Shown one piece after another: positions 5,248 through 20,479 of a stretch of DNA of 24,000 bases. The number at the start of each line of letters is the position of its first letter. Position 1 is the stretch's first letter. The position numbers and the translations under genes were made by a program. The notes under the pieces were generated by a model that worked only from the letters and a program-made list of their open reading frames with translations, had not been told where the DNA came from and searched no databases. Origin of the DNA: an uncultured Hyphomicrobium sp. (GTDB lineage Bacteria > Pseudomonadota > Alphaproteobacteria > Rhizobiales > Hyphomicrobiaceae); NCBI GenBank assembly GCA_964620915.1, contig CAZUKP010000045.1, positions 237-24,236 of the forward strand, given 5' to 3'.

Positions 5248-5265
5248 CGTCAGCTCCGCCGGGAG

Positions 5266-5309: not shown

Positions 5310-5319
5310 GGAGTGGCGC

Positions 5320-6465
<1,146 letters not shown>

Positions 6466-6477
<12 letters not shown>

Positions 6478-7044
6478 TTAGCAGTGATCATCACTAGCTA
6501 TGTCGCGCTTTGGTCATACCTCTGGTTCACCCGGGACAGACATCTCGATAGGCTGTCGCCTCGGGAGGAGCTCAAACGCTACTTCAATCTACTGTTCTTC
6601 ATCCTGGTCTATGTCTTCTCGGTCTACTTCGCGGCGAGCTTCTTCGCCGAGCAGGATGCGGCGTGGCATCAGACTGTGGTCCGCGATACGAGCTTCACTC
6701 CAAGCCACATCGTGCTCTTCTATGGAACGATGCCGCTCTACGTGTTGTTCGGCGTTGGCTCCTTCTTGTACGGGATGACGAGAATTCCAGCGTTTGCCAA
6801 GAATATCTCTATTCCTTTCCTGGTCGCCGTCGTTGGCCCTTTCTTGATCCTGCCGAACCTCGGGTACAACGAATGGGCCCATGCGTTCTGGCAGATCGAG
6901 GAGGTCTTCTCGGCGCCTGTACACTGGGGCTTTGTCATAATGGGCTGGAGCGTGCTCGGTCTGGGCGGTCTTTTGGTGCAGATCGTTCAGGGCACACTCA
7001 GTGCGATGAGGCGGGTGGACGGCGAGTCGCACGCACGAGCTTAG
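6466..7044 (+). CDS. amoC: Copper membrane monooxygenase subunit C (AmoC/PmoC family), N-terminally truncated; about 70-80 residues and the first two TM helices are missing
   Basis: Similarity to AmoC/PmoC begins at about [38 protein letters not shown], which corresponds to about residue 75-95 of full-length proteins. It continues through [28 protein letters not shown] and [22 protein letters not shown]. The Asp/His/His metal ligands are conserved (D at 6655-6657, H at 6667-6669, H at 6706-6708). The ORF-track portion 6091-6465 is antisense to the aldehyde dehydrogenase, not AmoC. The first in-frame ATG inside the homologous part is 6466. Confidence 0.75.
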
Positions 7045-7075
7045 AACCAAAAAACTAAAAAATTCTCGTTCAAGA

Positions 7076-7104
7076 CTCCGCCGGACATGGAATGTCCGGC
7101 GGAG
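7076..7104 (+). promoter_or_regulatory. Perfect 13-bp stem, 3-nt loop hairpin in the amoC-amoA intergenic spacer (probable mRNA processing/stability element)
   Basis: ctccgccggacat (7076-7088) is the exact reverse complement of atgtccggcggag (7092-7104). No T-tract follows. The amoA RBS gggaggaagg lies at 7109-7118. Confidence 0.5.
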
Positions 7105-7123
7105 CACCGGGAGGAAGGTAATC

Positions 7124-7948
7124 ATGCAGAAGTTGGCTGACGCTGAGACCGTGCAAATCTATGGGGTAACGTGGTCTAAGTGGGCTGCGAGCCTATCGCG
7201 CCGATTTGATTTTCTTCTGGCGGTCATAGTTGGTCTGGCCATTATGTCCGCCTTCCACTTACATTTTATGCTTCTAGCCGGCGACTGGGATTTCTGGGTT
7301 GACTGGAAGGACCGACAGTGGTGGCCCACACTCACCCCGATTGTCGCCATCACGTTTCCTGCGGCTGTGCAGTATGTATTCTGGGAGAAATTCAGGCTGC
7401 CGATCGGCGCCACCTTTTCGCTCACGCTCTTGGTTCTGGCCGAATGGGCTTCGAGATATGGCGGATTTAATCTCTGGTCCGACTTCCCGGTGAGCTTGAC
7501 CTGGCCGGCCACGATCATTCCGGGGGCGATCGTTCTTGATTGCGTGCTTCTGCTGACCGGAAACTTCCTCCTGACCGCCATCTTTGGCGGCATGGCATTC
7601 GGCCTGATGTTCTATTCAGGCAACTGGCCGATGCTGGCGGCCTACCGGATCCCCATGGAGGTGATGAACACCATGGTTTCGGTGGGAGACTATATCGGTT
7701 ACGCCTTCCCCCGGACAGCCACGCCCGAGTACGTGAGGCTGATCGAACGCGGGACGCTGCGAACCTTTGGCGGACATTCAGCCTCCATCGCGGCATTCTT
7801 CGCCGGCTTTGCCTGCATCCTGATGTACCTGGTCTGGTGGTACATCGGCTGGTTCTTCGCCAGGCTCATCTGGGTACCCAACAAGCTTGCGACGGCGATG
7901 GGGTTCAAAAAGGAACACCACAAGGCAGATGAGGTGCCGGCGGTCTAG
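7124..7948 (+). CDS. amoA: Copper membrane monooxygenase subunit A (AmoA/PmoA family)
   Basis: 274-aa polytopic membrane protein with HLHFMLLAGDWDFWVDWKDRQWWPTLTPIVAITF, FYSGNWP, TPEYVRLIERGTLRTFGGHSASIAAFF and WWYIG, hallmark AmoA/PmoA blocks. Strong RBS upstream. Confidence 0.92.
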   Translation: MQKLADAETVQIYGVTWSKWAASLSRRFDFLLAVIVGLAIMSAFHLHFMLLAGDWDFWVDWKDRQWWPTLTPIVAITFPAAVQYVFWEKFRLPIGATFSLTLLVLAEWASRYGGFNLWSDFPVSLTWPATIIPGAIVLDCVLLLTGNFLLTAIFGGMAFGLMFYSGNWPMLAAYRIPMEVMNTMVSVGDYIGYAFPRTATPEYVRLIERGTLRTFGGHSASIAAFFAGFACILMYLVWWYIGWFFARLIWVPNKLATAMGFKKEHHKADEVPAV

Positions 7949-7957
7949 CGACCAAGG

Positions 7958-9289
7958 GTGGGACACAACGGCGTTAGGGATTGGAACCAGGAAATGGGCA
8001 AGAAAGTCGTTTTCACTATCAGGAAAGTCGGACGGCGAGTGACCCTGTTAGGACTCGCCGGATGGCTCGGGCTTGCGATCACGCTTTGCGGGCTATGCAT
8101 CAGCACGGACGCCTACGCGCATGGTGAGCGCAACCAAGAACCGTTCTTGCGCATGCGAACAGCGCAGTTCTGGGATGTGAAATGGAGTACCGACAAGCTA
8201 GGTGTTAATGACACTCTCACTCTGACTGGGAAGTTCAGGTTGTTCCCTGATTGGCCGAACAACCTTCCTCTGCCTGACTTGGCGTTCCTGGGCAGCGGCA
8301 CGGCCGGTCCGGTTTTGTCGCGGCTCGAGAGCTACATCAATGGTAAGCCGGCGATCCAATCAGGCAAGCTTGAGCTCGGCCGGGATTATGATTTCAAGGT
8401 GGTTTATAAGGGCCGCCAACCCGGCAAGCACCACGTTCACGCGCTGCTGAATGTGGATGGAGCAGGAGCGATCCTTGGCCCAGGAAAATGGGTCGAGGTG
8501 ACGGGAAACCAGGCAGACTTCGTACTTCCTGCGACCACGCTGGACGGCACCCAGATCGCGGATCTGAGTACGTGGGGACTCGGAACCGTCCTCGGATGGC
8601 ACGCGATCTGGATCGTAATCGGGCTTGCGTACATGCTCTGGTACATTTCCAAGCCTATGCTCATACCTCGTTACCTCGTGATTGAGGAGGGCGACCCGGA
8701 TACGCTCATCACGCGTTGGGACCGTATCTGGAGCGCTGGGTTCCTCATTCTTGCAGTTGTCACGGTTATCGTCGGTGTGCAGTGGGCCAATGCGGCCTAT
8801 CCCAGAACCGTCCCTCTGCAGGCAGGCGTCTTCAAAGTCGATCCCTTGCCGGACGAAACAGGTAACATCAAGGTGAATGTGGATCGGGCCGTATACGACG
8901 TTCCCGGACGGTCGATGCGCCTGGATTTAGAAGTGACCAACGATGGGACCGAGCCCCTCCGCCTCGGTGAGTTCACCACTGCGGGGCTTCGTTTCGTAAA
9001 CCAGGCCGTTCCCGAGGCCATCGCCGGCGTTGATGAGGACTATCCGGAGGATCTTGTTGCCCCTGAAGGGCTCAAGGTAGATGACGATAGCCCTATCCAA
9101 CCCGGCGAGACGCGCAAGCTTCACGTCGATGCGACGGACGCAGCGTGGGAGCTCGAACGTCTCACGAGCCTCTTAAATGATCCGGATAACCGGGTCGGTG
9201 GCCTGCTATTCTTCTTCGGTCCAGACGGCGATCGGAAGATAGCGAACGTCTACGGCCCGATCGTGCCGAATTTTACTAAGGCCGAGTAA
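7958..9289 (+). CDS. amoB: Copper membrane monooxygenase subunit B (AmoB/PmoB family)
   Basis: Signal peptide ending DAYA|HGERNQEPFLRMRT, with His at 8120-8122. HxH copper motif GKHHVHALLNV at 8429-8440. Two central TM helices, and a C-terminal cupredoxin-like region YDVPGRSMRLDLEVTNDG, GEFTTAGLRF, GPIVPNFTK. Start is GTG 7958 or ATG 7994 (MGKKVVF); undecided. Confidence 0.92.
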   Translation: MGHNGVRDWNQEMGKKVVFTIRKVGRRVTLLGLAGWLGLAITLCGLCISTDAYAHGERNQEPFLRMRTAQFWDVKWSTDKLGVNDTLTLTGKFRLFPDWPNNLPLPDLAFLGSGTAGPVLSRLESYINGKPAIQSGKLELGRDYDFKVVYKGRQPGKHHVHALLNVDGAGAILGPGKWVEVTGNQADFVLPATTLDGTQIADLSTWGLGTVLGWHAIWIVIGLAYMLWYISKPMLIPRYLVIEEGDPDTLITRWDRIWSAGFLILAVVTVIVGVQWANAAYPRTVPLQAGVFKVDPLPDETGNIKVNVDRAVYDVPGRSMRLDLEVTNDGTEPLRLGEFTTAGLRFVNQAVPEAIAGVDEDYPEDLVAPEGLKVDDDSPIQPGETRKLHVDATDAAWELERLTSLLNDPDNRVGGLLFFFGPDGDRKIANVYGPIVPNFTKAE

Positions 9290-9302
9290 AGCTAGAACAG
9301 AG

Positions 9303-9333
9303 CGGGAGAAGGCTCCTTCCGGGTCTTCTCCCG
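9303..9333 (+). promoter_or_regulatory. Hairpin just downstream of amoB (possible partial terminator/attenuator before the accessory genes)
   Basis: cgggagaag (9303-9311) is the reverse complement of cttctcccg (9325-9333), with a 13-nt loop. It is followed by ttggagttggaag and the ATG at 9347. There is no clear U-tract, so read-through is likely. Confidence 0.3.
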
Positions 9334-9346
9334 TTGGAGTTGGAAG

Positions 9347-9967
9347 ATGACGGCTTATCGATTAGCCCGGACCGCCTCGGTACGGAGTGCGGCCGGGATC
9401 GTTTCAGCGGCATTCATCGCGTTGGTTCCTCACCTGGCGTTTGCACATGGCGGCCTCAGCATGGAGAAGGACCTGTGCAAGCTGTTCATTGGCCCCTACA
9501 CCATGCATTTCACGGGGTATCAGCCCCTGACCTCCGGCACGCAGGAATTTTGTGAGGATATCCCCAATGTCGGCGAAATTGTCGTCGTGCTCGACGCGGT
9601 CGATTCTTCGCTCAGGAAGGTTCCCATCGATGTGCGGATCATTCGCGATACCGGGGTGCCTGAAACTGAGCAGGATGACATTGAAAACGTGACCGTGATG
9701 CATCTTCCGGCCAAGGTTTACTCGTCTGGGACCGTTTCGCTGGAGCACACATTTCCAAAGCCCGGGAAGTTCGTGGGATTGGTCACCGCGGTCGATCCGA
9801 ACGGAACCTATGTCTCCAGATTCCCTTTTAGTGTAGCCAGGAGTTGGAGTTGGATGACGCCGTATCTTCTGATCGGAATCGTCGTTTTGGCGGGCGCCGG
9901 GCTTTACTGGTACTCCACCAATCTCCCCAAGATGAGGGCGGCGCGGGCTCTTAGGAAGGCCCGCTGA
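9347..9967 (+). CDS. Membrane-anchored periplasmic protein, candidate PmoD/AmoD/AmoE-like copper protein (hypothetical)
   Basis: 206 aa. Signal peptide ...LVPHLAFA|HGG (His at 9446-9448), a beta-rich soluble domain carrying a C-x8-M-H cluster (CKLFIGPYTMH), and a single C-terminal TM helix (MTPYLLIGIVVLAGAGLYWY) with a basic tail. Architecture and position directly after subunit B match orf4/orf5 (amoE/amoD) and pmoD. Sequence homology not verified. Confidence 0.6.
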   Translation: MTAYRLARTASVRSAAGIVSAAFIALVPHLAFAHGGLSMEKDLCKLFIGPYTMHFTGYQPLTSGTQEFCEDIPNVGEIVVVLDAVDSSLRKVPIDVRIIRDTGVPETEQDDIENVTVMHLPAKVYSSGTVSLEHTFPKPGKFVGLVTAVDPNGTYVSRFPFSVARSWSWMTPYLLIGIVVLAGAGLYWYSTNLPKMRAARALRKAR

Positions 9968-9971
9968 CAGC

Positions 9972-10940
9972 ATGCACGGGTGCTCGGAGCTGTTGCGCAT
10001 CGATCCCCGTGTCTGGTTCCAATGGCCGGTAATAGCGGTCCTGCTCGCCGGTTGTCTCCCCGGATCCGATTCTGATCAGTCTACAGCAGTTGCCGCCTTT
10101 GATTATGCCGCGGCAGAGCGCCGTGGGACTTGCGAGACGGGCGCGAAGCCGGGCGCAGGCGGCGCGACCGACGGATATACTGGCAGCGTCACTTACAATG
10201 TCAGGGCGCCGGCAAATTACGATCCTTCATTCGCCCATCCTCTACTTGTGGTCTACGCTGCTGCGGGAATGACCGCGGAGGAAAGTGAGGAGTTCACAGG
10301 CTTTACCAAAGCGGCGACACAAAACGGATGGATTGTTGCCTACGCTGACCACAAGCGCATGTCCGTTGAGGCTGTACGTGACTTGGCAAAGCTGCCGGCT
10401 GAAGTCAGCGAGAAGTGGTGCATCGACATGAGTCGCGTTTACGCGACGGGCCATTCTGACGGTGGTACCGTATCCACGGCGATCGCGCTCTTGGACGGGA
10501 CCCGGGACACTTTGGCTGGGATTGCACCGAGCGCTGCCGGATTCCGCAAGAGCGACTTTGAGACCTTCAAATGTCCGTCGGCCCCGTTTCCGGTCATGGT
10601 GATGCACGGCAGCTGGGATGTGGCGTTTTACGGCTGGGGTAAACAGGCGGCCGAGTGGTGGGCATCCTGCAATGGTTGCAGCATGAGTGAGGCGCCGCGT
10701 CCCCTCGGCGATGGATGCGTCGCGTATGACGGCTGCGCTCGGGATGGCCCGACGGTTTACTGCGAGGGCCCACGATTGCACAGCCAATGGCCCGGCCTGT
10801 CGGCGCAGATCATCGACTTTTTCGACGCCGTACACGGCCGCTCCGGTATGAGCACGCCATCAGCAGCCATAGAGAGGACGCACGCGTCTGCAATGAAACC
10901 CCACAAGGTTGCCCGGATAAAACGAAAAAGTCGGAGGTAA
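9972..10940 (+). CDS. Lipoprotein alpha/beta-hydrolase, polyhydroxybutyrate depolymerase / esterase (LpqC-like) family
   Basis: Lipobox VLLAGC near the N-terminus, nucleophile elbow GHSDGG (GxSxG), a later HG motif (MVMHGSWD) and a Cys-rich C-terminal region as seen in COG3509-type esterases. A TTG a few codons downstream is an alternative start. Confidence 0.65.
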   Translation: MHGCSELLRIDPRVWFQWPVIAVLLAGCLPGSDSDQSTAVAAFDYAAAERRGTCETGAKPGAGGATDGYTGSVTYNVRAPANYDPSFAHPLLVVYAAAGMTAEESEEFTGFTKAATQNGWIVAYADHKRMSVEAVRDLAKLPAEVSEKWCIDMSRVYATGHSDGGTVSTAIALLDGTRDTLAGIAPSAAGFRKSDFETFKCPSAPFPVMVMHGSWDVAFYGWGKQAAEWWASCNGCSMSEAPRPLGDGCVAYDGCARDGPTVYCEGPRLHSQWPGLSAQIIDFFDAVHGRSGMSTPSAAIERTHASAMKPHKVARIKRKSRR

Positions 10941-10945
10941 AACGA

Positions 10946-11332
10946 ATGTGGATCGTAAGGCGCGCCATGTTGGTCGGCAGTACCGCCGTGGCGCTGGTCG
11001 TAAACCTCATCTGTTCGCCCGATGCTTTTGCACACGCGCAATTGGTCAAGTCGGAACCTGCGCGTCGGGCCGTGATTAGTGAATCGCCTAAGCAAGTTAA
11101 GCTCTGGTTCAACGAGGAGATCGAAGGCGCCTACGCCACGCTCACGGTGCTCGACAGCAAGGAGAAAGCCATTACGGAGAATAGCCCTGAAGTTGCGGCC
11201 GACGATCCAAAGCTTCTCACCCTGGCAGTGCCAGCTTTGCCGCGGGGTAAATATGTCGTCAAGTATCGCGTTCTTTCCGTCGATGGCCACGTGGTGGAGT
11301 CGACTTACGACTTCACAATAAAAGGCAACTGA
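10946..11332 (+). CDS. copC: Periplasmic copper-binding protein CopC (Cu(II)-site-only type)
   Basis: ATG at 10946 has GGAGG 8 nt upstream. Signal peptide ...SPDAFA|HAQLVKSEP, with mature N-terminal His at 11033-11035. The D-x-H ligand motif is SVDGHVVES. The mature sequence contains no Met, so it lacks a Met-rich Cu(I) site. The 53-codon upstream extension in the ORF track overlaps the esterase gene. Confidence 0.9.
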   Translation: MWIVRRAMLVGSTAVALVVNLICSPDAFAHAQLVKSEPARRAVISESPKQVKLWFNEEIEGAYATLTVLDSKEKAITENSPEVAADDPKLLTLAVPALPRGKYVVKYRVLSVDGHVVESTYDFTIKGN

Positions 11333-11347
11333 CCAGAGTTTGTAACA

Positions 11348-13372
11348 ATGATCGAAGTCATCGGCGCGACCGCGAAATGGTTGCAGCTTGTCGCCAATAT
11401 GCTTCTCGTTGGGGCGTTTACGTTTTTCGCCATCACGGCATACGACCGTGCGGGTGTCGACAACCAATGGCTCGACCGCCTGGAGCGCGCTTTGCCCGGG
11501 TTGACGGTGGCCTCAGCCATTCTTCTTATCGTTGTTCTGGCGATTACGGCGGCCGAGGTCACTGACGTCGCCGGTAATGCGTTTAAGCCTGACGCGTGGT
11601 GGGGTGTCCTCAAGAACACTTGGCTCGGGAAGGTTTGGACGGCCCGCATGGGTCTAACGCTGCTTGTCCTCCTGCCCGCTACCGCCTACACACGCATCGC
11701 TCCGAGTGCCCGCTGGCGCTATTTGCTCTGCGCCGGAATTGCTGCGGCGGTGTTGGCGGCGGGAGCTTTTTCCAGCCACGCGGCGGCCGAGGAGGCGCCG
11801 TGGCTCGCTATCGGACCATACGCGCTTCACATTGTCCTAGCCGCTGTTTGGCTTGGCGGCCTGTCGGCCTTCCTCGCCGTGCTCTACGGCTCGTCTCCGC
11901 GCGAATCGCCGCGATCGCCTCAGAGTTATTCTGCCACCACTGCGATCACGCGCTTCTCCGCGATGGCGCTACCGGTGATGGCCGGCATCGTCGCAACCGG
12001 TCTGATAGTCGCCAACAACCAGATCGAGTCGCGATATGCCGCTCTCGTGTCCACCGACTATGGCTGGTTCTTGGTTAGCAAGCTCGGCTTGCTGTGCGCC
12101 ATCCTGGTCATCGCCTCCTACGCACGGTTCGCTTGGCTACCTTCGTTAGAGAAGGGAGATCCGGACGATTCGGCATGGCGCCCGCTTCGCACCGGCGTCA
12201 GCGTCGAGTTCGGGCTCGCCATCTTGCTTGTTCTTGCGGCGACGCTATGTGCGAGTTCGATACCAGCCAAGCATGCTGTGATCGACCAGTGGCCCTATTC
12301 GTTCCGCTTCTCGCTGAAAGCGACCCTGGAACTCCCGGAGACGATCACCAATCTCGTCGTAGCGGGCGTATTGGTCTTTGCAGCCGCGGCGGCGGCCGTC
12401 ACTTGGGTTGGCGGACGCGTGCGCTGGTCCCGCGCCGCCCTCAGTGCGAGCATTATTCTCACTGTCGCTTCGGCCTGCATGACGCTCTATGCCATCGCCA
12501 CGGCGGCAAGCGTCGACACCTACCGAGGCAGTGCAGTTCCTTTCGACGCTATTTCAATTGCGCGCGGCGCTCATCTCTTCGCCGAGAACTGCACGATGTG
12601 TCATGGACCCCAGGGAAAGGGCAATGGCCCGCTCGCTACCAGCCTTCCCAAAAGCCCGGCGGATTTGCTGACCGAGCCGCATACAGCAAGACATTTGGCC
12701 GGTGACCTTTATCACTGGATCAAGGTCGGCATTCCTGCGGGCGAAATGCCCGGCTTTGGTCACAAGCTCTCCGAGGACGACCGCTGGGACGTCGTCAACT
12801 TCTTGCATGTTGTATCGAGGGGGTACGAAAGCAGAATCTTGCGCACGCGTGTGGTGCCGGACAGCCCGTCGGAGAATCTCGGTGCGCCCGACTTCTCGTT
12901 CGTCGACCAGCATGGAAACTCGCACACGCTAAAGGACTACCGGGAGAAGAAATCCGTGCTGCTGGTGTTTTTCAAGTGGCCGGAGGCAGAAGAGCGCCTG
13001 AAGACGCTTCAGGCTCAATATGCAGCGATCCAGTCCAACGAAGCCGAGGTCATCGCTATCCCGTGGGGTGGCAGCGCCCCCGATCGGAGTTGGGCCGAAA
13101 AGTTGCCTTTTCCCGTCGCTCAGGGCAGCAGCGAAATCGGCGAGACATACGCAGCTTTCCGTCGGTCGCTCGGCCATCCGGACCTGTTCGGGGCTGGAAT
13201 AGTTCCAGATCGCATGGAGTTACTCGTGGACCGGTTCGGCTATCTGCGCGGACGCTGGCTCCCTGCCCAAGACGAAACGGGCTGGGACGACACCAACCGG
13301 CTCGTTGCACAGCTCGGCCAGCTTCGAAGCGAAGACGAGATCTTACCGCCTGCAGAAGACCACGTGCATTGA
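11348..13372 (+). CDS. copD: CopD-family inner-membrane protein fused to a class I c-type cytochrome domain and a C-terminal thioredoxin-fold (AhpC/TSA/redoxin-like) domain that lacks the CxxC cysteines
   Basis: 674 aa. About 10 predicted TM segments over the first 400 residues, immediately after copC. Heme motif CTMCH at residues 415-419 (12590-12604) with a downstream GEMPGFG candidate Met ligand. From about 12884 the pattern APDFSFVDQHGNSHTLKDYREKKSVLLVFFKWPEAEERL resembles TlpA/ResA/peroxiredoxin, but WCxxC is replaced by WPEAE. Confidence 0.85.
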   Translation: MIEVIGATAKWLQLVANMLLVGAFTFFAITAYDRAGVDNQWLDRLERALPGLTVASAILLIVVLAITAAEVTDVAGNAFKPDAWWGVLKNTWLGKVWTARMGLTLLVLLPATAYTRIAPSARWRYLLCAGIAAAVLAAGAFSSHAAAEEAPWLAIGPYALHIVLAAVWLGGLSAFLAVLYGSSPRESPRSPQSYSATTAITRFSAMALPVMAGIVATGLIVANNQIESRYAALVSTDYGWFLVSKLGLLCAILVIASYARFAWLPSLEKGDPDDSAWRPLRTGVSVEFGLAILLVLAATLCASSIPAKHAVIDQWPYSFRFSLKATLELPETITNLVVAGVLVFAAAAAAVTWVGGRVRWSRAALSASIILTVASACMTLYAIATAASVDTYRGSAVPFDAISIARGAHLFAENCTMCHGPQGKGNGPLATSLPKSPADLLTEPHTARHLAGDLYHWIKVGIPAGEMPGFGHKLSEDDRWDVVNFLHVVSRGYESRILRTRVVPDSPSENLGAPDFSFVDQHGNSHTLKDYREKKSVLLVFFKWPEAEERLKTLQAQYAAIQSNEAEVIAIPWGGSAPDRSWAEKLPFPVAQGSSEIGETYAAFRRSLGHPDLFGAGIVPDRMELLVDRFGYLRGRWLPAQDETGWDDTNRLVAQLGQLRSEDEILPPAEDHVH

Positions 13373-13425
13373 GCAGGCGGCATGGGCTTGGGAGCCCAAG
13401 AAACTAGGGAAGGAGAGTAAGGCGA

Positions 13426-13902
13426 ATGAAAGGAAAATGGATCGTTGCCCTCGTAGGCACGGTGCTCCTGTGGACGACGCCAGCGTGGTCGCACAGTGAC
13501 GAATTTTTCGACAGCAGACCTTCAGCCCATGGTGGTCAGACCCGCATGGCAGGCCCGTACCACCTCGAGCTCGTGCCCGGTAAGGACGAAGTAACCGTCT
13601 ATGTGACCAATCACATTGAACAGGATGTCCCGACGGCGGGCGGTGAAGGCAAGGTCGTTGTCAAGGCGAAGGAAGGCGACGTCACGATCATGCTGAAGCC
13701 TGCCGGCAATAACATGCTCAAGGGTAACGGCACGTTCACTCTCGACCAGGGCACGGTTATCGTGCTCTTCGTGAAGCTGCCGGAGCACGAGGCCCAGGCG
13801 GCCAGGTTCACGCCGCTGAAGCCCAAAGCCAGCGCTGCCAAGCCCGATGACGACAGCGCTCATGGCGACGGCCATGGTCATCATGATCACGATAGTCACT
13901 AA
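13426..13902 (+). CDS. Periplasmic His-rich protein, putative metal-binding protein/metallochaperone (hypothetical)
   Basis: RBS aaggagag upstream. Signal peptide ...TTPAWS|HSDE (His at 13492-13494), a beta-rich core (YHLELVPGKDEVTVYVTNH) and the C-terminal tail SAHGDGHGHHDHDSH. Confidence 0.75.
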   Translation: MKGKWIVALVGTVLLWTTPAWSHSDEFFDSRPSAHGGQTRMAGPYHLELVPGKDEVTVYVTNHIEQDVPTAGGEGKVVVKAKEGDVTIMLKPAGNNMLKGNGTFTLDQGTVIVLFVKLPEHEAQAARFTPLKPKASAAKPDDDSAHGDGHGHHDHDSH

Positions 13903-13950
13903 CCGGAGCCAGGCAGGATTTAGGAATCGTTCGAATGAAAGGAACGCAAG

Positions 13951-14358
13951 ATGACGAAAACTAGTGGAGCGTGCCTATGCGGAGCCGTGACGTATAACTT
14001 TGATGCTGAACCGCAAATGTTGGCGCTATGTCATTGCTCGCATTGCCAGAAAGCCACGGGCTCGGCCTTTTCGATGAACTTGGGAGTCCCGATCGAGAGC
14101 GTGCAAATGGAGGGAAAGCCGTCAGTGTATGAAGACGTCGGAACCTCCGGAGAACCGGTGCTGCGCATGTTCTGCGGCAAGTGCGGTTCAGCCATCGCGA
14201 CCGAAGCCAAGGCATTTCCGGGGGTTCTGTTCATAAAGGCTGGTACCCTCGACGATGTATCCAAACTGGAACCAGATATGGAGATCTGGACGGGCTCCTC
14301 GCAGGCATGGGTGTCGCCTTGCGCCAAGGCCAAGAGGTTCCCTGCCAATCCCGGCTAA
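13951..14358 (+). CDS. GFA family protein (glutathione-dependent formaldehyde-activating enzyme / CENP-V fold, Zn-Cys)
   Basis: 135 aa with the characteristic cysteine pattern GACLCGAV, CHCSHCQK and FCGKCGS. Confidence 0.85.
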   Translation: MTKTSGACLCGAVTYNFDAEPQMLALCHCSHCQKATGSAFSMNLGVPIESVQMEGKPSVYEDVGTSGEPVLRMFCGKCGSAIATEAKAFPGVLFIKAGTLDDVSKLEPDMEIWTGSSQAWVSPCAKAKRFPANPG

Positions 14359-14395
14359 TCGAAGAGAAGCGTTGCGGCGGCCTTGCTGAGCGAAC

Positions 14396-15328
14396 ATGCA
14401 CTCTCGGCCGCAAGGGGTCAGACCCAGCGCACCGGCGGAGATGTTCGAAGGGTTTGAGCACAAGCTGGTCGATGTGGATGGCATCCGCATCGCCTGCACC
14501 ATTGGCGGATCTGGTCCGCCCGTGCTTCTGCTGCATGGTTTTCCTCAGACCCGCGCGATGTGGGCCAAGGTCGCGCCGCAACTCGCCGAGTCTTACGCCG
14601 TTGTCTGCTCCGATCTCCGCGGCTATGGCGACTCGGACAAGCCGCAATGTCTGCCCGACCGGTCGAACTATTCTTTTCGAACCTTCGCTGCGGATCAGCT
14701 TGGCCTTATGCGCCAACTGGGTTTCGAACGATTTCACCTAATCGGGCATGATCGTGGCGGCCGCACCGGACACCGCCTTGCCCTGGATCACCCTGAGGCC
14801 CTGTTGAGCCTTGCCCTACTGGACATTGTGCCCACCCATTTGATGTTCACCCGAACCAATTGGGCCCTGGCCCAAGCCTATTGGCATTGGTATTTTCTCG
14901 CCCAGCCCGAGCCCCTCCCAGAGCGGCTGATTGGCGCCGACCCGGACTTCTTCTACGAGAGTTGTCTCGTTGGTTGGGGTGCAACGCCGCTGTCGGACTT
15001 CGATCCGGAGATGCTAGCCGAGTATCGTCGTGCCTGGCGGCACCCTGGCATGATTCACGGTTCCTGCGCAGACTACCGTGCCGCCTTTAGCCAAGATTTC
15101 GCCCACGATGACGCCGACATCGACAAGAAGGTCGCCTGCCCCACGCTCGTCCTCTACGGCGCGTCCGGAGTTATGGCGCAACTGTTCAACATTCCGGAGG
15201 AGTGGCGGAAACGGTGCAGCCGCGTAATGGAGGCTTCGTTGGAGGGCGGTCATTTTTTTGTGGATCATTTGCCGAATGAGGTCTCGCACCTGCTGCTATC
15301 GTTCCTCGGCGGCAGCGCAGATGACTAG
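14396..15328 (+). CDS. Alpha/beta-hydrolase of the fluoroacetate / haloacetate dehalogenase H-1 family (Asp nucleophile)
   Basis: [23 protein letters not shown], Asp-nucleophile elbow [11 protein letters not shown] including the two Arg, YWHWYF (His/Trp halide pocket), SCADYRA and GGHFFVD (catalytic His) match my recollection of characterised fluoroacetate dehalogenases (Burkholderia FAc-DEX FA1, R. palustris RPA1163). An alternative start is ATG 14441. Confidence 0.75.
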
Positions 15329-15412
15329 CGTCGAGGATTGCTGAACAAGTGATTTGCCTAGTCGAGCGTCCAATTTTACATTGAGCGTGAAAGTGTTTAG
15401 AAGGCGGCGAGC

Positions 15413-16783
15413 ATGAGTATGTCTGGTGATATGGCGCCCACGGAGATCTCTGAATCCGATCGGCTTCAGCACGAAGTCGCTAAGCTCAAGAAGATCAATG
15501 CCGTTCTTATGCGGCGTGTTCAACAATCGACGGATCAACAGGTCAGCGCTTACTCCATATTTCAGACCGCAATTGCCCTTGAGGGCCAGGTGCGCGGCCG
15601 GACCGAAGATCTGAAGAACGCGCTGCTACGACTGGAACTCGCCAACAAAGATTTGTTGACGGCGCGTGACGCCGCCGAACGTGCCAACCGCTTCAAGACT
15701 CGCTTCTTTACGGCGGTCGGGCATGACCTGCTGCAACCGCTGCATGCGGCGCGATTATCGGTTAGCGCCCTTACCAATCCCGAAGTCACGCCGTATCAGG
15801 CAAGGTTGGTGAACGCGATTGATCACGCGCTCGCAACAATTGAGGAACTCCTGACACCCATTCTTGATATCTCGAAATTGGAAGCTGGCGTCATTACGCC
15901 AACTTTACGACCGATCGACCTGGACAGTTTGTTTCACTCTTTAGCTGTCGATATGGAGCCCCTAGCGAGGACCAAGAATCTCGCGCTTAGCTGGCAGTCC
16001 AATTCTCTGTGGGTCACGTCTGACCCGCTAATGCTGCGGCGGATGCTACAGAACCTGCTGGCAAACGCTGTGCAGTACACGCAACAAGGTGAGATCAACC
16101 TCATTGCGTGTTGGCATGGCGACAAGATCAAGATCGAGGTCTCCGACACGGGACCGGGCATTCCGCTGGCCGAGCGCAAGATGATATTCGAAGAATTTCA
16201 AAGGGGCCCCGCTACCGATCAGCCGGCAATAGGCGGGTTTGGTCTCGGTCTTTCGATTGTGGAACGCATGGCGGAAGCGCTCGGTCATCCGTTCAGCCTT
16301 TGGTCTGAACTTGGTCATGGCACGCGGTTCTCGATCATCGTGCCATCGGTGGCCAAGGTTTGTTCCGGTACCAAGAAATCCGAAGCGGCGGACCGCGCGC
16401 GTAGCCACGGCCTCGTCGGTGCCAAAGTACTGGTAATCGACAATGACGATCACGTGCTTGAAGCAATGCAAGCACTCTTGGAACGATGGTCTTGCGAGGT
16501 ACAGGCTCTCCGCAGCTTATCCGAACTCGACTCTGTCACCTCGTCACAGTCATTCCGGCCTGACATCGTGCTGGCCGATTATCATCTCGATCAAGGAGAG
16601 AATGGCTTAGCCGCGGTCAAACGTCTGCGGCAGATCATCAACCCGCGGCTACCTGCCGTGATGGTAACGGCTGACCGTTCAACAGCGGTCTCACTTAAAG
16701 CCAGTAGAGGTGGATGCGAACTGCTGTTGAAACCGATCAAGCCGGCGGAGCTGCGTGCGCTTATGGCGCATCTGTTGGGTTGA
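15413..16783 (+). CDS. Cytoplasmic hybrid sensor histidine kinase (coiled-coil N-terminus, HisKA, HATPase_c, C-terminal receiver)
   Basis: No TM segment. H-box FFTAVGHDLLQPL (His at 15722-15724), N/G boxes NLLANAVQYT, DTGPGIP and GFGLGLSIV, and receiver VLVIDNDDHVL...DIVLADYHLD...LLKPIKP. Confidence 0.88.
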   Translation: MSMSGDMAPTEISESDRLQHEVAKLKKINAVLMRRVQQSTDQQVSAYSIFQTAIALEGQVRGRTEDLKNALLRLELANKDLLTARDAAERANRFKTRFFTAVGHDLLQPLHAARLSVSALTNPEVTPYQARLVNAIDHALATIEELLTPILDISKLEAGVITPTLRPIDLDSLFHSLAVDMEPLARTKNLALSWQSNSLWVTSDPLMLRRMLQNLLANAVQYTQQGEINLIACWHGDKIKIEVSDTGPGIPLAERKMIFEEFQRGPATDQPAIGGFGLGLSIVERMAEALGHPFSLWSELGHGTRFSIIVPSVAKVCSGTKKSEAADRARSHGLVGAKVLVIDNDDHVLEAMQALLERWSCEVQALRSLSELDSVTSSQSFRPDIVLADYHLDQGENGLAAVKRLRQIINPRLPAVMVTADRSTAVSLKASRGGCELLLKPIKPAELRALMAHLLG

Positions 16784-16818
16784 GGAGCCCCGGTCTTTGC
16801 CGGGACCTGTTTTGCCGT

Positions 16819-17493
16819 TCACTCCGCGTCGGAATCCTGACGCTGCGATAGAATGGCATCGAAATCGATCCTAGCCGCCTCTATGACGGCTTGCGTTCGG
16901 GACGTAACTTTGAGTTTGCGCAGGATTTCCGAGACGTGGGCCTTAATTGTGGCCTCTCCGACGCCAAACTCGTGCGCGATCTTTTTATTTTGCTTGCCTT
17001 GACGCAGCATCTGCAGAACACGGAGTTGCTGCGGAGTAAGCGTGGCAAGGCGGGCGCTGAGATCCGACTCGCACCTGCGATCATCCCCTTCCGGTATCTG
17101 ATATGCCTTCGGCAATGTGATCGAGCCCGCCATCACGTCGCGGATGGCAGAAGCAAGATCCAAACCCCGCGTTGATTTTGGTATGAAGCCGGCAGCCCCG
17201 CAGGCTAACACCTCCTGGACTATTCGAGGGTCTTCCATCGCGGAGACGATCACTATTGGCAGTTTGGGATAAGAAGTCCTGAGCTCCAGCAGCCCATCGA
17301 GACCATGGGTTTCGGGCAGTGCTAGATCGAGCAGAGCGATATCGAAGCTCGGGTTTCTATCGATGGCCGCGCGCGCCGATTGAATGGACGTCGCTTCGTC
17401 GATGCTCGCGCCTGGAAAGGCGCCTTGAACTACAAGCTTCAAGGCTTCGATGAACAAAGGGTGGTCGTCGACAATCAAGAAACTCGTCGGCAC
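16819..17493 (-). CDS. NarL/FixJ (LuxR-type HTH) family response regulator
   Basis: GTG start at 17491-17493 with GAGGAG about 9 nt upstream. Receiver FLIVDDHPLF...IALLDLALP...FIPKS. C-terminal HTH LTPQQLRVLQMLRQGKQNKKIAHEFGVGEATIKAHVSEILRKL. Confidence 0.9.
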   Translation of the reverse strand: MPTSFLIVDDHPLFIEALKLVVQGAFPGASIDEATSIQSARAAIDRNPSFDIALLDLALPETHGLDGLLELRTSYPKLPIVIVSAMEDPRIVQEVLACGAAGFIPKSTRGLDLASAIRDVMAGSITLPKAYQIPEGDDRRCESDLSARLATLTPQQLRVLQMLRQGKQNKKIAHEFGVGEATIKAHVSEILRKLKVTSRTQAVIEAARIDFDAILSQRQDSDAE

Positions 17494-17595
17494 CGCAATT
17501 TGTCTCCTCAGAGACAGTTGGCGCGCCTAGAGCCGTCCCAGGAAAGATTCAGTTAGGCGCTTCCCGTGAGCCGGTCTTCAAGGCCAGCTTCTACC

Positions 17596-17616
17596 ATTGA
17601 TATTATTGATAAATTA
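17596..17616. promoter_or_regulatory. AT-rich tandem ATTGATA motif upstream of the response-regulator gene (possible promoter/operator)
   Basis: ATTGATA occurs at 17596-17602 and 17605-17611, inside the only strongly AT-rich patch of the 17494-17779 intergenic region and about 100 nt upstream of the regulator start. On the minus strand it reads TAATTTATCAATAATATCAAT. Confidence 0.2.
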
Positions 17617-17779: not shown

Positions 17780-20479
17780 TTATCCTTCTCGCGAGAGAAT
17801 GGAAGCCGGAAACCGGCTAAGGGTGTCTGCCACTGAAAGTGTGGAGCCAGCTTTGACAATGCCGTTTGTAAGGATGTCGCGGAACGGCCGGTTGCCGATA
17901 TTTTCGGGCAACCGGACAGCAGTCTGTCCCCAGCGCTCCGGCGGGACAAACGGCGTATGCTGATCGTGGAGGAGATCGAGAGTCAGCCGGGGCACAATCA
18001 CGATCGCCGCCTGATCGCCAAACACGCGCGCGAAGGCCAGCACATGCTTGGCCGCCGGTCCCTCCACCTGCAAGGGCACATAATCGCCCTTGCCAAACAG
18101 GTCTTGGCGATCGAGGCGGACCCTCAATCCCGTTTGCAGCAAGAACATTTTGGGGACGCCGCTTCGCCAATGGGCGAGGAGCGTTTCGGGGGTGGCATCG
18201 AGCTTGGCTTGCGTCGCTTGGCAGTGATCGAAATCGACCGGGCGGCGATTGTCGGGATCGACCAGGCTCAAGTCCCAAAACTCGGCCCCCTGGTAAATGT
18301 CGGGCACGCCGGGGGCTGTCACTCTGATTGCGCTTTGCGTCAAGCTGTTGAGGGCGCCGGCGATGAAGACCGGTTCGCAAGCAGACACAAAGTCGCTCAG
18401 AAATACGCGCGACTTGGCCGGATCGAGAACGCTCCGTGTGAAGCTTTCGATCGCCTCTTCATAAGCGGCATTCTGTCCGGTCCAGCTCGTGTGAACCTTG
18501 GCCTCGCGCACGGATTTCAACATGAAGCCGGTTAAACGCTCGCTCAGAGTGGCAAGTCCTTCAACATCGCCGGGCTTCAGGTCTGATGGCCACACGCCGG
18601 CGAGGGCCTGATAGAACATCCACTCCGTCTCGGCCTCAGGCACGGCAATGCCCTCGACCTCCCGCCGATGATCTTTGTTCAGATCCGACCAGCGGCGAAC
18701 CGCCTTTGCCCATGACTCAGGCATCTCGCTCAGAACATAGAGTCGGGCACGGGCGTCCTCGCCGCGCTTGGTGTCATGGGTCGATCCCGCGCTAAGTCCG
18801 GCAGCCTGACGCCGCAAGCGCCTTATCATCGCGGCGTGAAACGCGTCGGCCGGCGCGCCGAACCGGTCCGGCTCGCCGCCGACCTCATTCAGCGCGATCA
18901 GGCGGTTGTAGCGGTAGAACGTGGTGTCCTCGAGCGCTTTAGCCATGACCGGACCGGAGGTCTGCTGGAGACGCGTGGCAAATTCGAGCGCGGACGCCTG
19001 GTCCTCGGGGGAGTCGAAGTCGAGGGCAAGCGCGCGGCCGAGGAAGTCGATCGCGTGCTCGTCTTCGACCTCACGCGTTCCCTTGGCCTTCTCGATAGCC
19101 GCGGCGAGAATGGCCCGGTCCTCATCGTGCGCACCCGTCACGTCGACATAAGTGCGGTAGACGGGAAGCGCCGCGACCAGCTCGATGATGGCGCGGCGGA
19201 GCGTGTCGGTGCCGAGATCCCGTGTTGCCAGGTGGCGCGCGGCCAGAGCCCCCGCCATGTCCTTGAGCCGATCGAGCTCGCCGGCAAGATTCCGGGTAAG
19301 CGTGCGCCTCTTGGTCTCGAGCGCGAGCGCGGCATAATCCACATGCTCACCGAGAAAGCCCTCGTAGGCCTCGGTCATGGCGGCTTCGCCGTCCGGATCG
19401 ACCAGGAGCCCGGCGAGGCTGGTAATGAACTCGTAGCCGGTCGTGCCGGCAACGGGCCATTCAGCGCGCAGCTCCTCCTCAGGCCCCAAAATCTTTTCCA
19501 CCACGAGATAAAGCGGATCGCTCTCGCCGAACGTCTTTTGCAGGCGTTCGAGATAGCCGTTCGGGTCGGCCAAGCCGTCGATGTGATCGAGGCGCAAGCC
19601 ATTGACGCTTCCCGATGCAACGAGTTCGCCGACCTTTGCATGCAGCTCATCGAACACGCGCGGACTTTCCACTTTCAACCCGACCAGGTCGGCGATCTCG
19701 AAGAACCGGCGATAGGTCAGTGTCTCCCGGGCAACGCGCCAATAGGTCAGCTGCCAAGTCTGCATCTCATGCAGCTCATGCAGGGCGTTCGTGTCTGCGG
19801 CAACCGCGGCGATGGCAGTTTCAATTACCCGCCTGGTTTCGTTTTCCTGCGCAGCCTCGGCAAGCTCGGCCTTTAGGCCGGGCGAGGTCTCCGGCGTCAC
19901 GACCGCGAAGCGCCGTGCCCATTCGGCAAATTCGTCGCCTTCGGTGCGGGCAAGAACATGGGCATAAGACGGGGGCGTGATCGGGAGCTTGAGGCCGCCG
20001 TAGGAGAACGTGATGCCGCCATCGTTCGTGTCGAAATTGAGCCCGAACTTCCCTTGTTCCAGAGCCTCGCCATAGCTCGTCCCCAGGGCCGGCACGAGCA
20101 GCTTGGGCGCCGCCCAATCGATGTCGAAGAACTGGGCGTAGTCGCTGGCCTGTCCCCACTCCAGCACGTCACGCCAATAGGGATTATAGGTCGATGCACT
20201 CATATGGTTGGGCACGAAATCGAGGAGGAAGCCGAGCCCTTCCGCCTGGAAGGCCGCGATCATGCGTTTGAAGCCCTCATCCCCGCCGAGAACTGGGTCG
20301 ATGACGCAATCGTCGACCACGTCATAGCCGTGCGTCGACCCCGGCTCGGCCTTGAAGATCGGCGATCCGTAAACATGGCTGATGCCGAGGCGCGCCAGGT
20401 ATGGCGCAAGGCCCGCAGCCCGCTCGAAGGTCAGGCTGTTGCGGAACTGCAAGCGATAGGTTGCTGACGGGACGATCAT
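17780..20479 (-). CDS. treY: Malto-oligosyltrehalose synthase
   Basis: 899-aa ORF starting MIVPSATYRLQFRNSLTFERAAGLAPYLARLGISHVYGSPIFKAEPGSTHGYDV, with LRLDHIDGL and other GH13 TreY signatures. Its ATG overlaps the malQ stop (ATGA). Confidence 0.92.
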   Translation of the reverse strand: MIVPSATYRLQFRNSLTFERAAGLAPYLARLGISHVYGSPIFKAEPGSTHGYDVVDDCVIDPVLGGDEGFKRMIAAFQAEGLGFLLDFVPNHMSASTYNPYWRDVLEWGQASDYAQFFDIDWAAPKLLVPALGTSYGEALEQGKFGLNFDTNDGGITFSYGGLKLPITPPSYAHVLARTEGDEFAEWARRFAVVTPETSPGLKAELAEAAQENETRRVIETAIAAVAADTNALHELHEMQTWQLTYWRVARETLTYRRFFEIADLVGLKVESPRVFDELHAKVGELVASGSVNGLRLDHIDGLADPNGYLERLQKTFGESDPLYLVVEKILGPEEELRAEWPVAGTTGYEFITSLAGLLVDPDGEAAMTEAYEGFLGEHVDYAALALETKRRTLTRNLAGELDRLKDMAGALAARHLATRDLGTDTLRRAIIELVAALPVYRTYVDVTGAHDEDRAILAAAIEKAKGTREVEDEHAIDFLGRALALDFDSPEDQASALEFATRLQQTSGPVMAKALEDTTFYRYNRLIALNEVGGEPDRFGAPADAFHAAMIRRLRRQAAGLSAGSTHDTKRGEDARARLYVLSEMPESWAKAVRRWSDLNKDHRREVEGIAVPEAETEWMFYQALAGVWPSDLKPGDVEGLATLSERLTGFMLKSVREAKVHTSWTGQNAAYEEAIESFTRSVLDPAKSRVFLSDFVSACEPVFIAGALNSLTQSAIRVTAPGVPDIYQGAEFWDLSLVDPDNRRPVDFDHCQATQAKLDATPETLLAHWRSGVPKMFLLQTGLRVRLDRQDLFGKGDYVPLQVEGPAAKHVLAFARVFGDQAAIVIVPRLTLDLLHDQHTPFVPPERWGQTAVRLPENIGNRPFRDILTNGIVKAGSTLSVADTLSRFPASILSREG

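Follow-up and report, generated by a model that had tools for sequence, protein, structure and literature searches.

A five-gene block behind a damaged CuMMO operon of an uncultured Hyphomicrobium sp. is probably a copper-handling counterpart of the accessory amo genes of ammonia oxidizers

Five co-oriented genes were found directly 3′ of xmoB (which ends at position 9289) in the window, that is, the whole 24,000-nucleotide stretch of DNA from an uncultured Hyphomicrobium sp. analyzed here. They probably represent the accessory, copper-handling half of an extended CuMMO operon, gene-for-gene orthologous to the amoD-copC-copD-His-tail set of betaproteobacterial ammonia oxidizers (beta-AOB). Judged by sequence, one lipoprotein hydrolase is inserted relative to that set, and amoE is absent. 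The present window adds little beyond one more, damaged, example of the extended operon. The block consists of:

9347-9967, + strand: g1, AmoD/PmoD orthologue (match to 6CPD, identity to AmoD)
9972-10940, + strand: g2, lipoprotein serine hydrolase of the alpha/beta fold (lipobox, triad, esterase matches)
10946-11332, + strand: g3, CopC (PF04234)
11348-13372, + strand: g4, fusion of CopD, cytochrome c, and a thioredoxin fold (Pfam)
13426-13902, + strand: g5, small secreted His-tailed beta-sandwich protein (homologues, AF2 model)

The spacers from xmoB through to g5 measure 57, 4, 5, 15, and 53 bp. CopC begins at 10946, in agreement with the gene call (5024-5410 in L001), and not at 10787, the mechanical ORF start. 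All five reading frames are unbroken, and each product aligns over its full length to homologues. A preliminary description of this DNA had proposed five co-oriented genes after subunit B, which is borne out by the ORFs at 9347-13902 on the + strand; the five identities it assigned hold as well (6CPD and AmoD matches, a hydrolase with lipobox, PF04234, three Pfam domains, and a His-rich tail, respectively). As relatives of g1-g5 adjoin xmoCAB in dozens of independent genomes, the arrangement is not due to chance.

Conservation beside CuMMO operons was quantified in a census of 39 genome loci in which xmoB is flanked by at least 7 kb to either side. Of these well-flanked loci, 38 had a PmoD-like gene, 21 the esterase, 18 CopC, 20 the CopD carrying cytochrome c, and 6 g5; all five genes were found together in 6/39. 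Lack of conservation beside related CuMMO operons, named initially as a refuting outcome, thus does not apply: all or most of the block is found again beside such operons in Alpha-, Beta-, and Gammaproteobacteria. Its gene order was identical in loci L002-L005, L086, L087, and L169, and synteny with CuMMO genes was observed in 80 genome loci. Cultured carriers of the cluster include Azoarcus sp. DD4 and Bradyrhizobium species (e.g., the L009 and L016 types). copCD was absent nearby in 19 of the 39 CuMMO loci; therefore, the module is not obligatory. CopC and CopD are common outside CuMMO organisms (PMC6189053, PMC8689200), and relatives of g2 and g5 occur in other contexts. Both observations would suit a role of the genes in general copper homeostasis or resistance, to the benefit of every periplasmic cuproenzyme, with the monooxygenase as no more than a neighbor. 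This reading is nevertheless improbable, because every retrieved context of the three-domain CopD not cut by a contig end adjoins amo/xmo or amoD-type genes, and because linkage to xmoCAB has persisted in three proteobacterial classes although the genes have been shuffled in order and orientation.

The product of g1 is assigned to the PmoD/AmoD family on the strength of its match to the PmoD structure 6CPD over residues 42-162 (E 1.2e-21) and its identity of 55% to Nitrosospira orf5/AmoD (32% to orf4/AmoE). It is predicted to have a cupredoxin-like domain between a signal peptide and a C-terminal membrane helix, the latter two being placed by hydropathy at residues 15-33 and 168-186, respectively. 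C44 and C69 align with Cys41 and Cys65 of PmoD. The motif C44-x8-M53-H54...C69 (C44-KLFIGPYT-M53-H54) is of the Cx8MH type, which was found in 42 of 81 PmoD-like ORFs surveyed in the loci; Cx7MMH was found in 11. The CuA-forming motif of PmoD is Cx7MxHxnC (PMC6189053), and as g1 has Cx8MH instead of Cx7MxH, its assignment as a CuA-type PmoD/AmoE was ruled out. The lack of Cx7MxH is also a point against the favored reading of the block.

The g3 product scored 84.3 bits with PF04234 (gathering score 23.3) and 83.2 with the CopC equivalog model of NCBIfam, which is below the cutoff of 95. Its mature N-terminus is predicted to be a His, an Asp-x-His (D-G-H) is located near the C-terminus, and Met is absent; it is a predicted CopC of the Cu(II)-site type. 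For g4, the Pfam models CopD (PF05425), Cytochrom_C (PF00034), and AhpC-TSA (PF00578) all scored above cutoff, and the following parts were delineated:

aa 1-390, + strand: CopD membrane domain, about 10 helices (Pfam, hydropathy)
aa ~396-492, + strand: class I cytochrome c domain (Pfam; cytochrome c552 match, E 7e-18)
12590-12604, + strand: heme motif C415-T-M-C418-H419 (conserved in homologues)
aa ~505-660, + strand: Cys-less ResA/TlpA-like thioredoxin fold (AhpC-TSA 35.5 bits, Foldseek)
C-terminus, + strand: H672-x-H674 (invariant in homologues)

Among 119 homologues of g4, the CxxCH and Met467 are invariant, five His and the HxH at the C-terminus are conserved, and no conserved Cys was found outside the heme CxxCH. 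The structural model (pLDDT 71.5) matched ResA in Foldseek (TM 0.70, E about 2e-5). The C-terminal fold resembles that of the ResA/TlpA/CcmG thioredoxins and the AhpE/Bcp peroxiredoxins, but their CxxC or peroxidatic Cys is replaced in g4 by W543-P544-E-A, of which Trp-Pro is conserved across homologues. The extension of CopD originally described as thioredoxin-like is therefore thioredoxin-like in fold, but not in its redox cysteines. Lacking CxxC, the domain cannot act as a thiol oxidoreductase; a redox-active thioredoxin or peroxiredoxin was ruled out, neither CxxC nor a peroxidatic Cys being present. PDB sequence and fold searches found no solved membrane domain of the CopD family; for all members of the family, the direction of transport by CopD and the part played by the heme domain are putative.

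The cytochrome c and thioredoxin-like extension had also been thought absent from described clusters, which proved incorrect, because the same domains are present in CopD of Nitrosomonas, Nitrospira, and Nitrosospira. g4 is 47% identical, at 100% coverage, to named CopD proteins of Nitrosomonas and Nitrospira; the three-domain architecture of ~673 aa is the standard CopD of both genera and also of Nitrosospira (704 aa), and it is found in comammox-type Nitrospira loci, too. A literature search found no mention of a CopD with a cytochrome c domain, and a 2026 AMO review mentions neither copC nor copD. In AMO-lineage clusters, CopD always carries the heme domain, which is closest, among structures in the PDB, to soluble cytochrome c552, so that it might be envisaged to feed, together with the cupredoxin-like AmoD, electrons to the CuMMO active site, copper transport being secondary; electron delivery is among the possible PmoD roles named by Fisher et al (PMC6189053). 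Such a chain has little probability, however, considering that g1 contains Cx8MH and not the CuA-forming Cx7MxH, that a heme domain tethered to a CopD-family transporter beside CopC is a better fit to metal handling, and that the fusion is absent from many CuMMO loci of the clade.

The g5 product contains a signal peptide, a predicted mature N-terminus at His23, and a disordered His-rich tail. No Pfam or NCBIfam model matched it, but it has 692 homologues, including ones from Nitrosospira, Nitrosovibrio, and Nitrospira. An alignment of homologues showed H46 and H63 to be invariant, with H35 almost so. The AF2 model (pLDDT 79.7) is a beta-sandwich, for which Foldseek returned CrdA as the best PDB match (E 5e-4, TM 0.43 by query and 0.60 by target, 13-15% identity). 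CrdA of Helicobacter pylori (9ll2, 9ll4), a periplasmic copper-resistance protein, is a similarly small beta-sandwich; g5 differs from it by an invariant His set of its own and the His tail, and any relationship is tentative. The notion that known clusters lack the His-rich protein had to be abandoned, as homologues follow copD in Nitrosomonas sp. Nm132 (170 aa, His-tailed, 40% identity, E 2e-34) and in Nitrosospira sp. Nsp2 (162 aa). One locus, L167, carries g5 among cytochromes, away from CuMMO genes. The occurrence of relatives of g2 and g5 away from CuMMO genes is another point against the favored reading.

Of the three parts taken to be undescribed, only the esterase is thus an addition, the other four genes matching the nitrifier set. 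It was not found in the AOB and comammox loci examined, for which its absence from described clusters was corroborated, and a literature search found no mention of an esterase in CuMMO clusters. g2 is predicted to encode a periplasmic alpha/beta-hydrolase lipoprotein with intact triad: it contains a lipobox (LAGC, Cys28) and the nucleophile elbow GHSDGG (G-x-S-x-G), and this elbow, the triad Ser162/Asp216/His270, C28, and eight Cys are invariant in 15 homologues, the motifs recurring in most of 41 loci. Among proteins of solved structure, carboxyl and feruloyl esterases are its nearest kin (8jh8, a feruloyl esterase, E 1.8e-9). A true PHB depolymerase or extracellular scl-PHA depolymerase was ruled out, the scores being far below the cutoffs (24 versus 107.85 for TIGR01840 and 47.8 versus 150 for NF050058). 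The family is small (only 99 representative clusters at E<=1e-30) and often, not always, located near CuMMO genes: 7 of 15 well-flanked metagenome loci with g2 had no CuMMO or cop gene nearby, and in 12 loci, g2 accompanied CuMMO genes without copCD. The latter loci, the invariant triad, the kinship to carboxyl and feruloyl esterases, and the alkane/alcohol oxidation context of the cluster (see below) would all be consistent with a catabolic enzyme of a hydrocarbon pathway, hydrolyzing, e.g., esters or lactones formed after oxidation, in place of a part in copper handling. We consider this unlikely. The ester-hydrolyzing steps known in alkane pathways are cytoplasmic, whereas g2 is a disulfide-rich periplasmic lipoprotein; furthermore, Nitrospira-like contigs, in which a hydrocarbon pathway is not expected, carry it next to a solitary amoC and a pmoD-like gene.

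The block is flanked by the following features:

5320..6465, − strand: remnant of an ExaC-type aldehyde dehydrogenase gene without its first ~123 codons (Pfam Aldedh, NCBIfam AcaldDHExaC)
6466..7044, + strand: xmoC, 5′-truncated, 192 codons left (partial AmoC profile)
7124..7948, + strand: xmoA, CuMMO subunit A, intact (PF02461, 315 bits)
7994..9289, + strand: xmoB, CuMMO subunit B, intact, 431 aa (PF04744, 484 bits)
9301..9335, + strand: 15-bp GC-rich hairpin in the xmoB-amoD spacer (MFE −27.4 kcal/mol, z = −3.3)
13951-14358, + strand: GFA-family protein (Pfam, NCBIfam)
14396-15328, + strand: alpha/beta hydrolase of the haloalkane-dehalogenase/epoxide-hydrolase type (Pfam, NCBIfam)
15413-16783, + strand: NahK/ErcS-family hybrid histidine kinase (NCBIfam)
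16819-17493, − strand: ErdR-like LuxR-type response regulator (NCBIfam)

The exaC remnant, which is 86% identical to the aldehyde dehydrogenase at the start of L002, covers positions 99-461 of the 461 in the Aldedh profile and 124-503 of the 503 in AcaldDHExaC. It forms the left side of a deletion junction (6465/6466), and the genes on both sides are truncated. xmoC matches the AmoC profile only at positions 62-237 of 245, and its homology to the L002 protein begins at residue 79; at full length, XmoC comprises 271 residues in L002 and 267 in L169. No Shine-Dalgarno sequence or ribosome-binding site was found 5′ of Met6466 of xmoC. The products of xmoA and xmoB are 53% identical to Nitrosospira AmoA and identical to protein P0001, respectively. 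In comparison with the closest genome, a deletion of ~7.6 kb has joined the truncated exaC to codon ~79 of xmoC, stripping the operon of its promoter region and xmoC of its ribosome-binding site and first membrane helix. Because the front end of the operon was thereby taken, the module may be a recently orphaned remnant or be in the service of another copper enzyme. The proposal that it is dedicated to the CuMMO is weakened for the present genome, xmoC being 5′-truncated and promoterless. The truncation of xmoC and its lack of a ribosome-binding site also speak against the favored reading.

It is conceivable, if doubtful, that the locus is a decaying, unexpressed remnant in which the deletion silenced the downstream module as well. 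The junction with its truncated genes, the remaining xmoC without ribosome-binding site, and the loss of the alcohol dehydrogenase and acetyl-CoA synthetase genes still present in L002 would conform to this, as would the outcome of the consensus scan, in which the stretch from the junction to the module contained no sigma-70-like site. The downstream ORFs, however, are all intact and full-length, so any decay would have to be very recent; internal promoters may have escaped the consensus scan; and the module could serve a second CuMMO locus (xmoCAB-pmoD) without copCD, as found ~24 kb away in related genomes (L022, L025).

Over positions 5200-17600, promoter-like sites were fewer than in shuffled sequences (sigma-70 consensus scan), and no canonical intergenic terminator was detected inside the block; Rfam had no match on the whole window. 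Strong hairpins of different sequence occupy the position of the one after xmoB in L002, L003, L086, L087, and L169, and in Nitrosospira (L166), a hairpin followed by a U-run is found at the equivalent position. The hairpin at 9301..9335 is probably an attenuating or mRNA-stabilizing stem, which suggests weaker expression of the module than of xmoCAB.

Orthologues of the GFA and hydrolase genes, 69-78% identical, occupy the corresponding site in L002, L003, L086, and L087, and the kinase and regulator genes have ~70% identical ones in the same place in these four loci; relatives of the latter pair (46-50% identical) lie beside the Bradyrhizobium CuMMO loci L058 and L061. Kinase and regulator matched the NCBIfam models NF041832 (384.7 bits, cutoff 400) and NF041830, and this ErcS/ErdR-like pair is a candidate for regulating the cluster. 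The neighboring genes, namely those for ExaC and the ErcS/ErdR-like regulators in the window and, in relatives, for an alcohol dehydrogenase plus an acetyl-CoA synthetase, point to alkane/alcohol oxidation and not to nitrification. No hao or cyc genes were found within the 24-kb window. The AmoA_BACT and AmoB_BACT models of NCBIfam scored above cutoff and AmoC_BACT below; the CuMMO would be annotated automatically as ammonia monooxygenase despite its alkane/alcohol context.

For the favored copper-handling operon half, the following mechanism can be envisaged. All five products would face the periplasm. CopC would capture Cu(II) by its N-terminal His and Asp-x-His site and pass it to the membrane domain of CopD, where the fused c-type heme domain could donate an electron, copper thereby being handled as Cu(I). 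The Cys-less thioredoxin fold and the C-terminal His-x-His might provide a docking or metal hand-off surface, not a thiol reductase. g5 would buffer or shuttle copper via its N-terminal His, conserved His, and His tail, and the membrane-anchored AmoD would act at the monooxygenase. A more far-reaching, and rather unlikely, interpretation is that AmoD, CopC, the heme-bearing CopD, and the His-brace-like g5 form a dedicated metallation and/or electron-delivery apparatus of the whole AMO lineage (beta-AOB, comammox, and hydrocarbon-oxidizing relatives), with the esterase as a further, hitherto unrecognized CuMMO-associated factor in the non-nitrifier branch. If this is true, CuMMO biogenesis would involve two new protein families, represented by g5 and the esterase. 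The papers searched make none of three points that emerge here: in the AMO lineage, copD always encodes a transporter joined to a c-type heme domain and to a thioredoxin fold devoid of Cys; it is followed, even in Nitrosospira and Nitrosomonas, by the gene for a conserved His-rich protein; and a small esterase family accompanies the non-nitrifier CuMMO branch.

Among known systems, YobA-YebZ(-YebY) of E. coli and YcnJ of B. subtilis, for which a role in import has been proposed (PMC8689200), likewise combine the Cu(II) His/Asp/His site of CopC with a CopD-family membrane protein. YebZ and YcnJ, however, lack the heme and thioredoxin-fold domains of g4, and g5 has no kinship to their third partner (YebY or YcnI). 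CopC/CopD has been regarded as a putative Cu importer (PMC8689200), and published work connects pmoD and copCD with pmo/amo operons and with growth dependent on copper (PMC6189053). In the alphaproteobacterial methanotroph operon, pmoCAB-pmoD-copC-copD-PCuAC (Fisher et al, 2018; PMC6189053), a PmoD homologue directly follows subunit B and precedes copC and copD, as is the case here; in contrast, g1 has Cx8MH in place of the CuA motif Cx7MxH, and a PCuAC gene is absent. The comparison drawn initially with the beta-AOB order amoCAB-orf4/orf5-copCD is upheld. The present cluster differs from the beta-AOB one in having no amoE paralogue, an extra esterase between amoD and copC, an alcohol/aldehyde oxidation context instead of nitrification, and a truncated xmoC. 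Order and orientation are otherwise those of amoCAB-amoE(orf4)-amoD(orf5)-copC-copD plus an unnamed His-tailed ORF, as exemplified by CopC-CopD (673 aa)-g5 homologue in Nitrosomonas sp. Nm132 and by amoA-amoB-189 aa-198 aa-CopC-CopD (704 aa, CopD + CytC + AhpC/TSA)-g5 homologue in Nitrosospira sp. Nsp2 (L166). The likeness extends to identities of 55% for AmoD, about 45% for the g5 homologue, and 53% for XmoA/AmoA, to the hairpin after subunit B, and to a three-domain CopD shared at 47% identity with the named members from Nitrosomonas.

Behind the gene for subunit B of the copper monooxygenase (CuMMO), five genes follow in the same orientation, as the preliminary description had it. The gene run from the truncated xmoC (xmoC') to g5 is uninterrupted on the plus strand, and the surrounding features are arranged as follows:

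5320-7044, exaC on −, xmoC on +: exaC/xmoC junction, breakpoint 6465/6466, from alignment to L002, the closest genome
6466-7044, +: xmoC', 5′-truncated
7124-7948, +: xmoA
7994-9289, +: xmoB
9347-9967, +: g1, AmoD/PmoD-type protein
9972-10940, +: g2, esterase lipoprotein
10946-11332, +: g3, copC
11348-13372, +: g4, three-domain CopD
13426-13902, +: g5, His-tailed protein
13951-17493, downstream of the module: GFA protein, dehalogenase/epoxide-hydrolase-like α/β hydrolase, NahK/ErcS-family hybrid kinase, ErdR-like regulator

The spacers of the block measure 57, 4, 5, 15, and 53 bp, a Shine-Dalgarno sequence is recognizable for most genes of the run, and window positions 5923-15340 match an independent Logan assembly (run SRR9700687) base for base. 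A search of the five-gene block for canonical terminators and promoter signals found none. Between xmoB and g1, a GC-rich 15-bp hairpin is predicted (9301-9335; −27.4 kcal/mol, z = −3.3). Five relatives (L002, L003, L086, L087, and L169) have a strong counterpart of different sequence at the same position, and in Nitrosospira (L166) the equivalent hairpin after subunit B is followed by a U-run. These hairpins suggest attenuated read-through into the accessory genes.

The front of the operon is damaged. What is left of xmoC covers the 245-position AmoC profile from 62 to 237 only (full-length XmoC of relatives comprises 267-271 aa), and no ribosome-binding site was found upstream of it. Directly upstream, on the opposite (−) strand, an ExaC-type aldehyde dehydrogenase gene lacks its first ∼123 residues. 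With L002 (71-86% protein identity) as the reference, a deletion of 7.56 kb (L002 898-8453) is implied, which took the 5′ end of exaC, acetyl-CoA synthetase, a Zn alcohol dehydrogenase, a FIST protein, a small Fe-S protein, OmpW, the xmo upstream region, and xmoC codons 1-78. The independent Logan contig runs across the junction, which is therefore supported by reads. That the whole locus is a silent remnant in this genome is somewhat doubtful; the genes downstream of the junction are intact, and the deletion is therefore either recent or a population variant. Within exaC, the SRR9700687 Logan assembly is interrupted (∼5398-5923; contig L170 stops near 5398, and L001 begins at 5923), which may reflect an assembly-graph branch or a strain variant near the deletion.

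The four genes downstream of the module are syntenic in the closest relatives (L002, L003, L086, and L087). Together with ExaC-DUF779 in the window, alcohol dehydrogenase and acetyl-CoA synthetase in L002, and PQQ genes in L169, they indicate short-chain alkane/alcohol oxidation, not nitrification, as the context of the locus. Despite this alcohol/aldehyde-oxidation context, automatic annotation would label the CuMMO an ammonia monooxygenase; the NCBIfam equivalog cutoffs are passed within 7124-9289 (AmoA_BACT, 326.8 vs 290; AmoB_BACT, 528.4 vs 336). The kinase/regulator pair also adjoins the CuMMO loci L058 and L061 of Bradyrhizobium. Farther downstream (17780-23993, −) lies an apparent trehalose/maltooligosaccharide set with two α-amylase-family proteins and one 4-α-glucanotransferase; two mechanical ORFs there, 20476-22590 and 22344-23993, share ∼250 nt, so that one start codon is probably over-extended.

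An XmoB profile search yielded 80 loci in genomes of Alpha-, Beta-, and Gammaproteobacteria, which were compared with the window proteins by tblastn. Almost everywhere, a PmoD-like gene lies directly 3′ of xmoB, and esterase, CopC, heme-CopD, and g5 genes occur near xmoB in varying order and orientation. Of the 39 loci flanked by at least 7 kb on each side, the PmoD-like gene was present in 38, the esterase in 21, heme-CopD in 20, CopC in 18, and g5 in 6; g1, g2, CopC, and g4 occurred together in 15 and all five genes in 6. The refuting case named in the preliminary description, a block not conserved next to related CuMMO operons, thus fails, because its genes recur at CuMMO loci, in identical order at L002-L005, L086, L087, and L169. 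That the module merely comprises general copper homeostasis genes is quite improbable. In each of the two closest MAGs, two CuMMO operons lie ∼24 kb apart on one contig (L002/L022 and L003/L025), the second (L022, L025) with only a PmoD-like gene of the Cx9H type and without esterase, copCD, or g5. L004 has three PmoD paralogues (6658-7867 and 11332-11838), of which two precede xmoC and one follows xmoB, and L076 two tandem xmoC genes (7510-9060).

In the protein g1, a signal peptide and a C-terminal membrane helix flank a region that matches the solved periplasmic domain of PmoD (6CPD, E 1.2e-21). Its motif, C44-x8-M53-H54...C69, rules out a CuA-type PmoD; formation of the CuA site is restricted to Cx7MxH proteins (Fisher et al, PMC6189053), which places g1 among the AmoD-type, non-CuA members. 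Of the PmoD-like motifs in this CuMMO clade, Cx8MH is the most frequent (42/81). CopC (g3) has an N-terminal His, a D-x-H site, and no methionine.

In g4, CopD, Cytochrom_C, and AhpC-TSA domains are joined. Among 119 homologues, His144/His161/Met211/His309 of the CopD part, C415xxC418H419, Met467, and His445/449/487 of the heme domain (nearest to cytochrome c552), and the C-terminal H672-x-H674 are conserved, and Trp-Pro occupies the CxxC position of the thioredoxin fold. In the structure model, the C-terminal domain superposes on ResA/CcmG/AhpE (TM ∼0.70). No Pfam or NCBIfam model matched g5. Across its family (692 matches), the predicted mature N-terminal His, H46, and H63 are invariant, H35 is nearly so, and the tail is His/Met-rich; the AF2 model (pLDDT 79.7) is a β-sandwich, with Helicobacter pylori copper protein CrdA as best, if weak, PDB match (E 5e-4). 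One homologue (L167 10001-10474) has no copCD or CuMMO nearby; its neighbors are c-type cytochromes, a SoxA-like protein, a molybdopterin oxidoreductase, and a Metal_resist-domain protein.

From these features, CopC would bind periplasmic Cu(II), the CopD membrane domain would move copper, and the tethered c-type heme could be the electron source for Cu(II)/Cu(I) conversion. Docking or metal hand-off might be the role of the Cys-less thioredoxin fold and its HxH tail, g5 might serve as a copper buffer or carrier, and AmoD would act at the monooxygenase. That the module is instead an electron-delivery chain appears quite improbable.

The lipoprotein g2 (lipobox LAGC, Cys28) resembles PHB-depolymerase-type esterases weakly, below cutoff, and feruloyl/carboxyl esterases at E ∼1e-9. 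Ser162 (GHSDGG), Asp216, His270, and eight cysteines are invariant in its relatives. That g2 is a catabolic esterase is unlikely. It belongs to a small family, with 99 representative clusters at E<=1e-30 among 1.84 billion. Members also occur in housekeeping contexts and beside lone full-length amoC on Nitrospira-like contigs, and of 15 well-flanked metagenome loci, 8 have CuMMO/cop genes nearby and 7 none. The association with CuMMO is real but loose. The g2-like genes lie 1-6 kb from the lone amoC (L108, L125, L141, L142, L151, L155, and L164) on contigs of Nitrospira-like housekeeping content (MutS2, PGK/TPI); L108 and L151 have an additional divergent pmoD-like gene on the opposite strand.

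Besides the esterase, which is indeed absent from the loci of ammonia-oxidizing bacteria (AOB) and comammox examined, the preliminary description had considered the CopD extension and the His-rich protein new to described clusters. Neither is: in Nitrosomonas and comammox Nitrospira, CopD is ordinarily of the ∼673-aa three-domain type (g4 is 47% identical to named members over full coverage), and g5 homologues follow copD in Nitrosospira and Nitrosomonas. In the literature searched, the genes are simply named copCD, and the extra CopD domains and g5 are not discussed. Nitrosospira sp. Nsp2 has the order amoA-amoB-orf4-orf5-CopC-CopD-g5 homologue, with a 704-aa CopD of the same three domains; of its two genes between amoB and CopC, the second (orf5/AmoD) shares 55% identity with g1 and the first (orf4/AmoE) just 32%. 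In Nitrosomonas sp. Nm132, copD is followed by the gene for a poly-His-tailed g5 homologue of 170 aa (40% identity, E 2e-34), and comammox-type loci read amoD/E paralogues-CopC-CopD. With these counterparts of AmoD, CopC, CopD, and g5, four of the five genes correspond one-to-one to genes of the betaproteobacterial AOB cluster, and the locus is one more, damaged, example of the known extended CuMMO operon.
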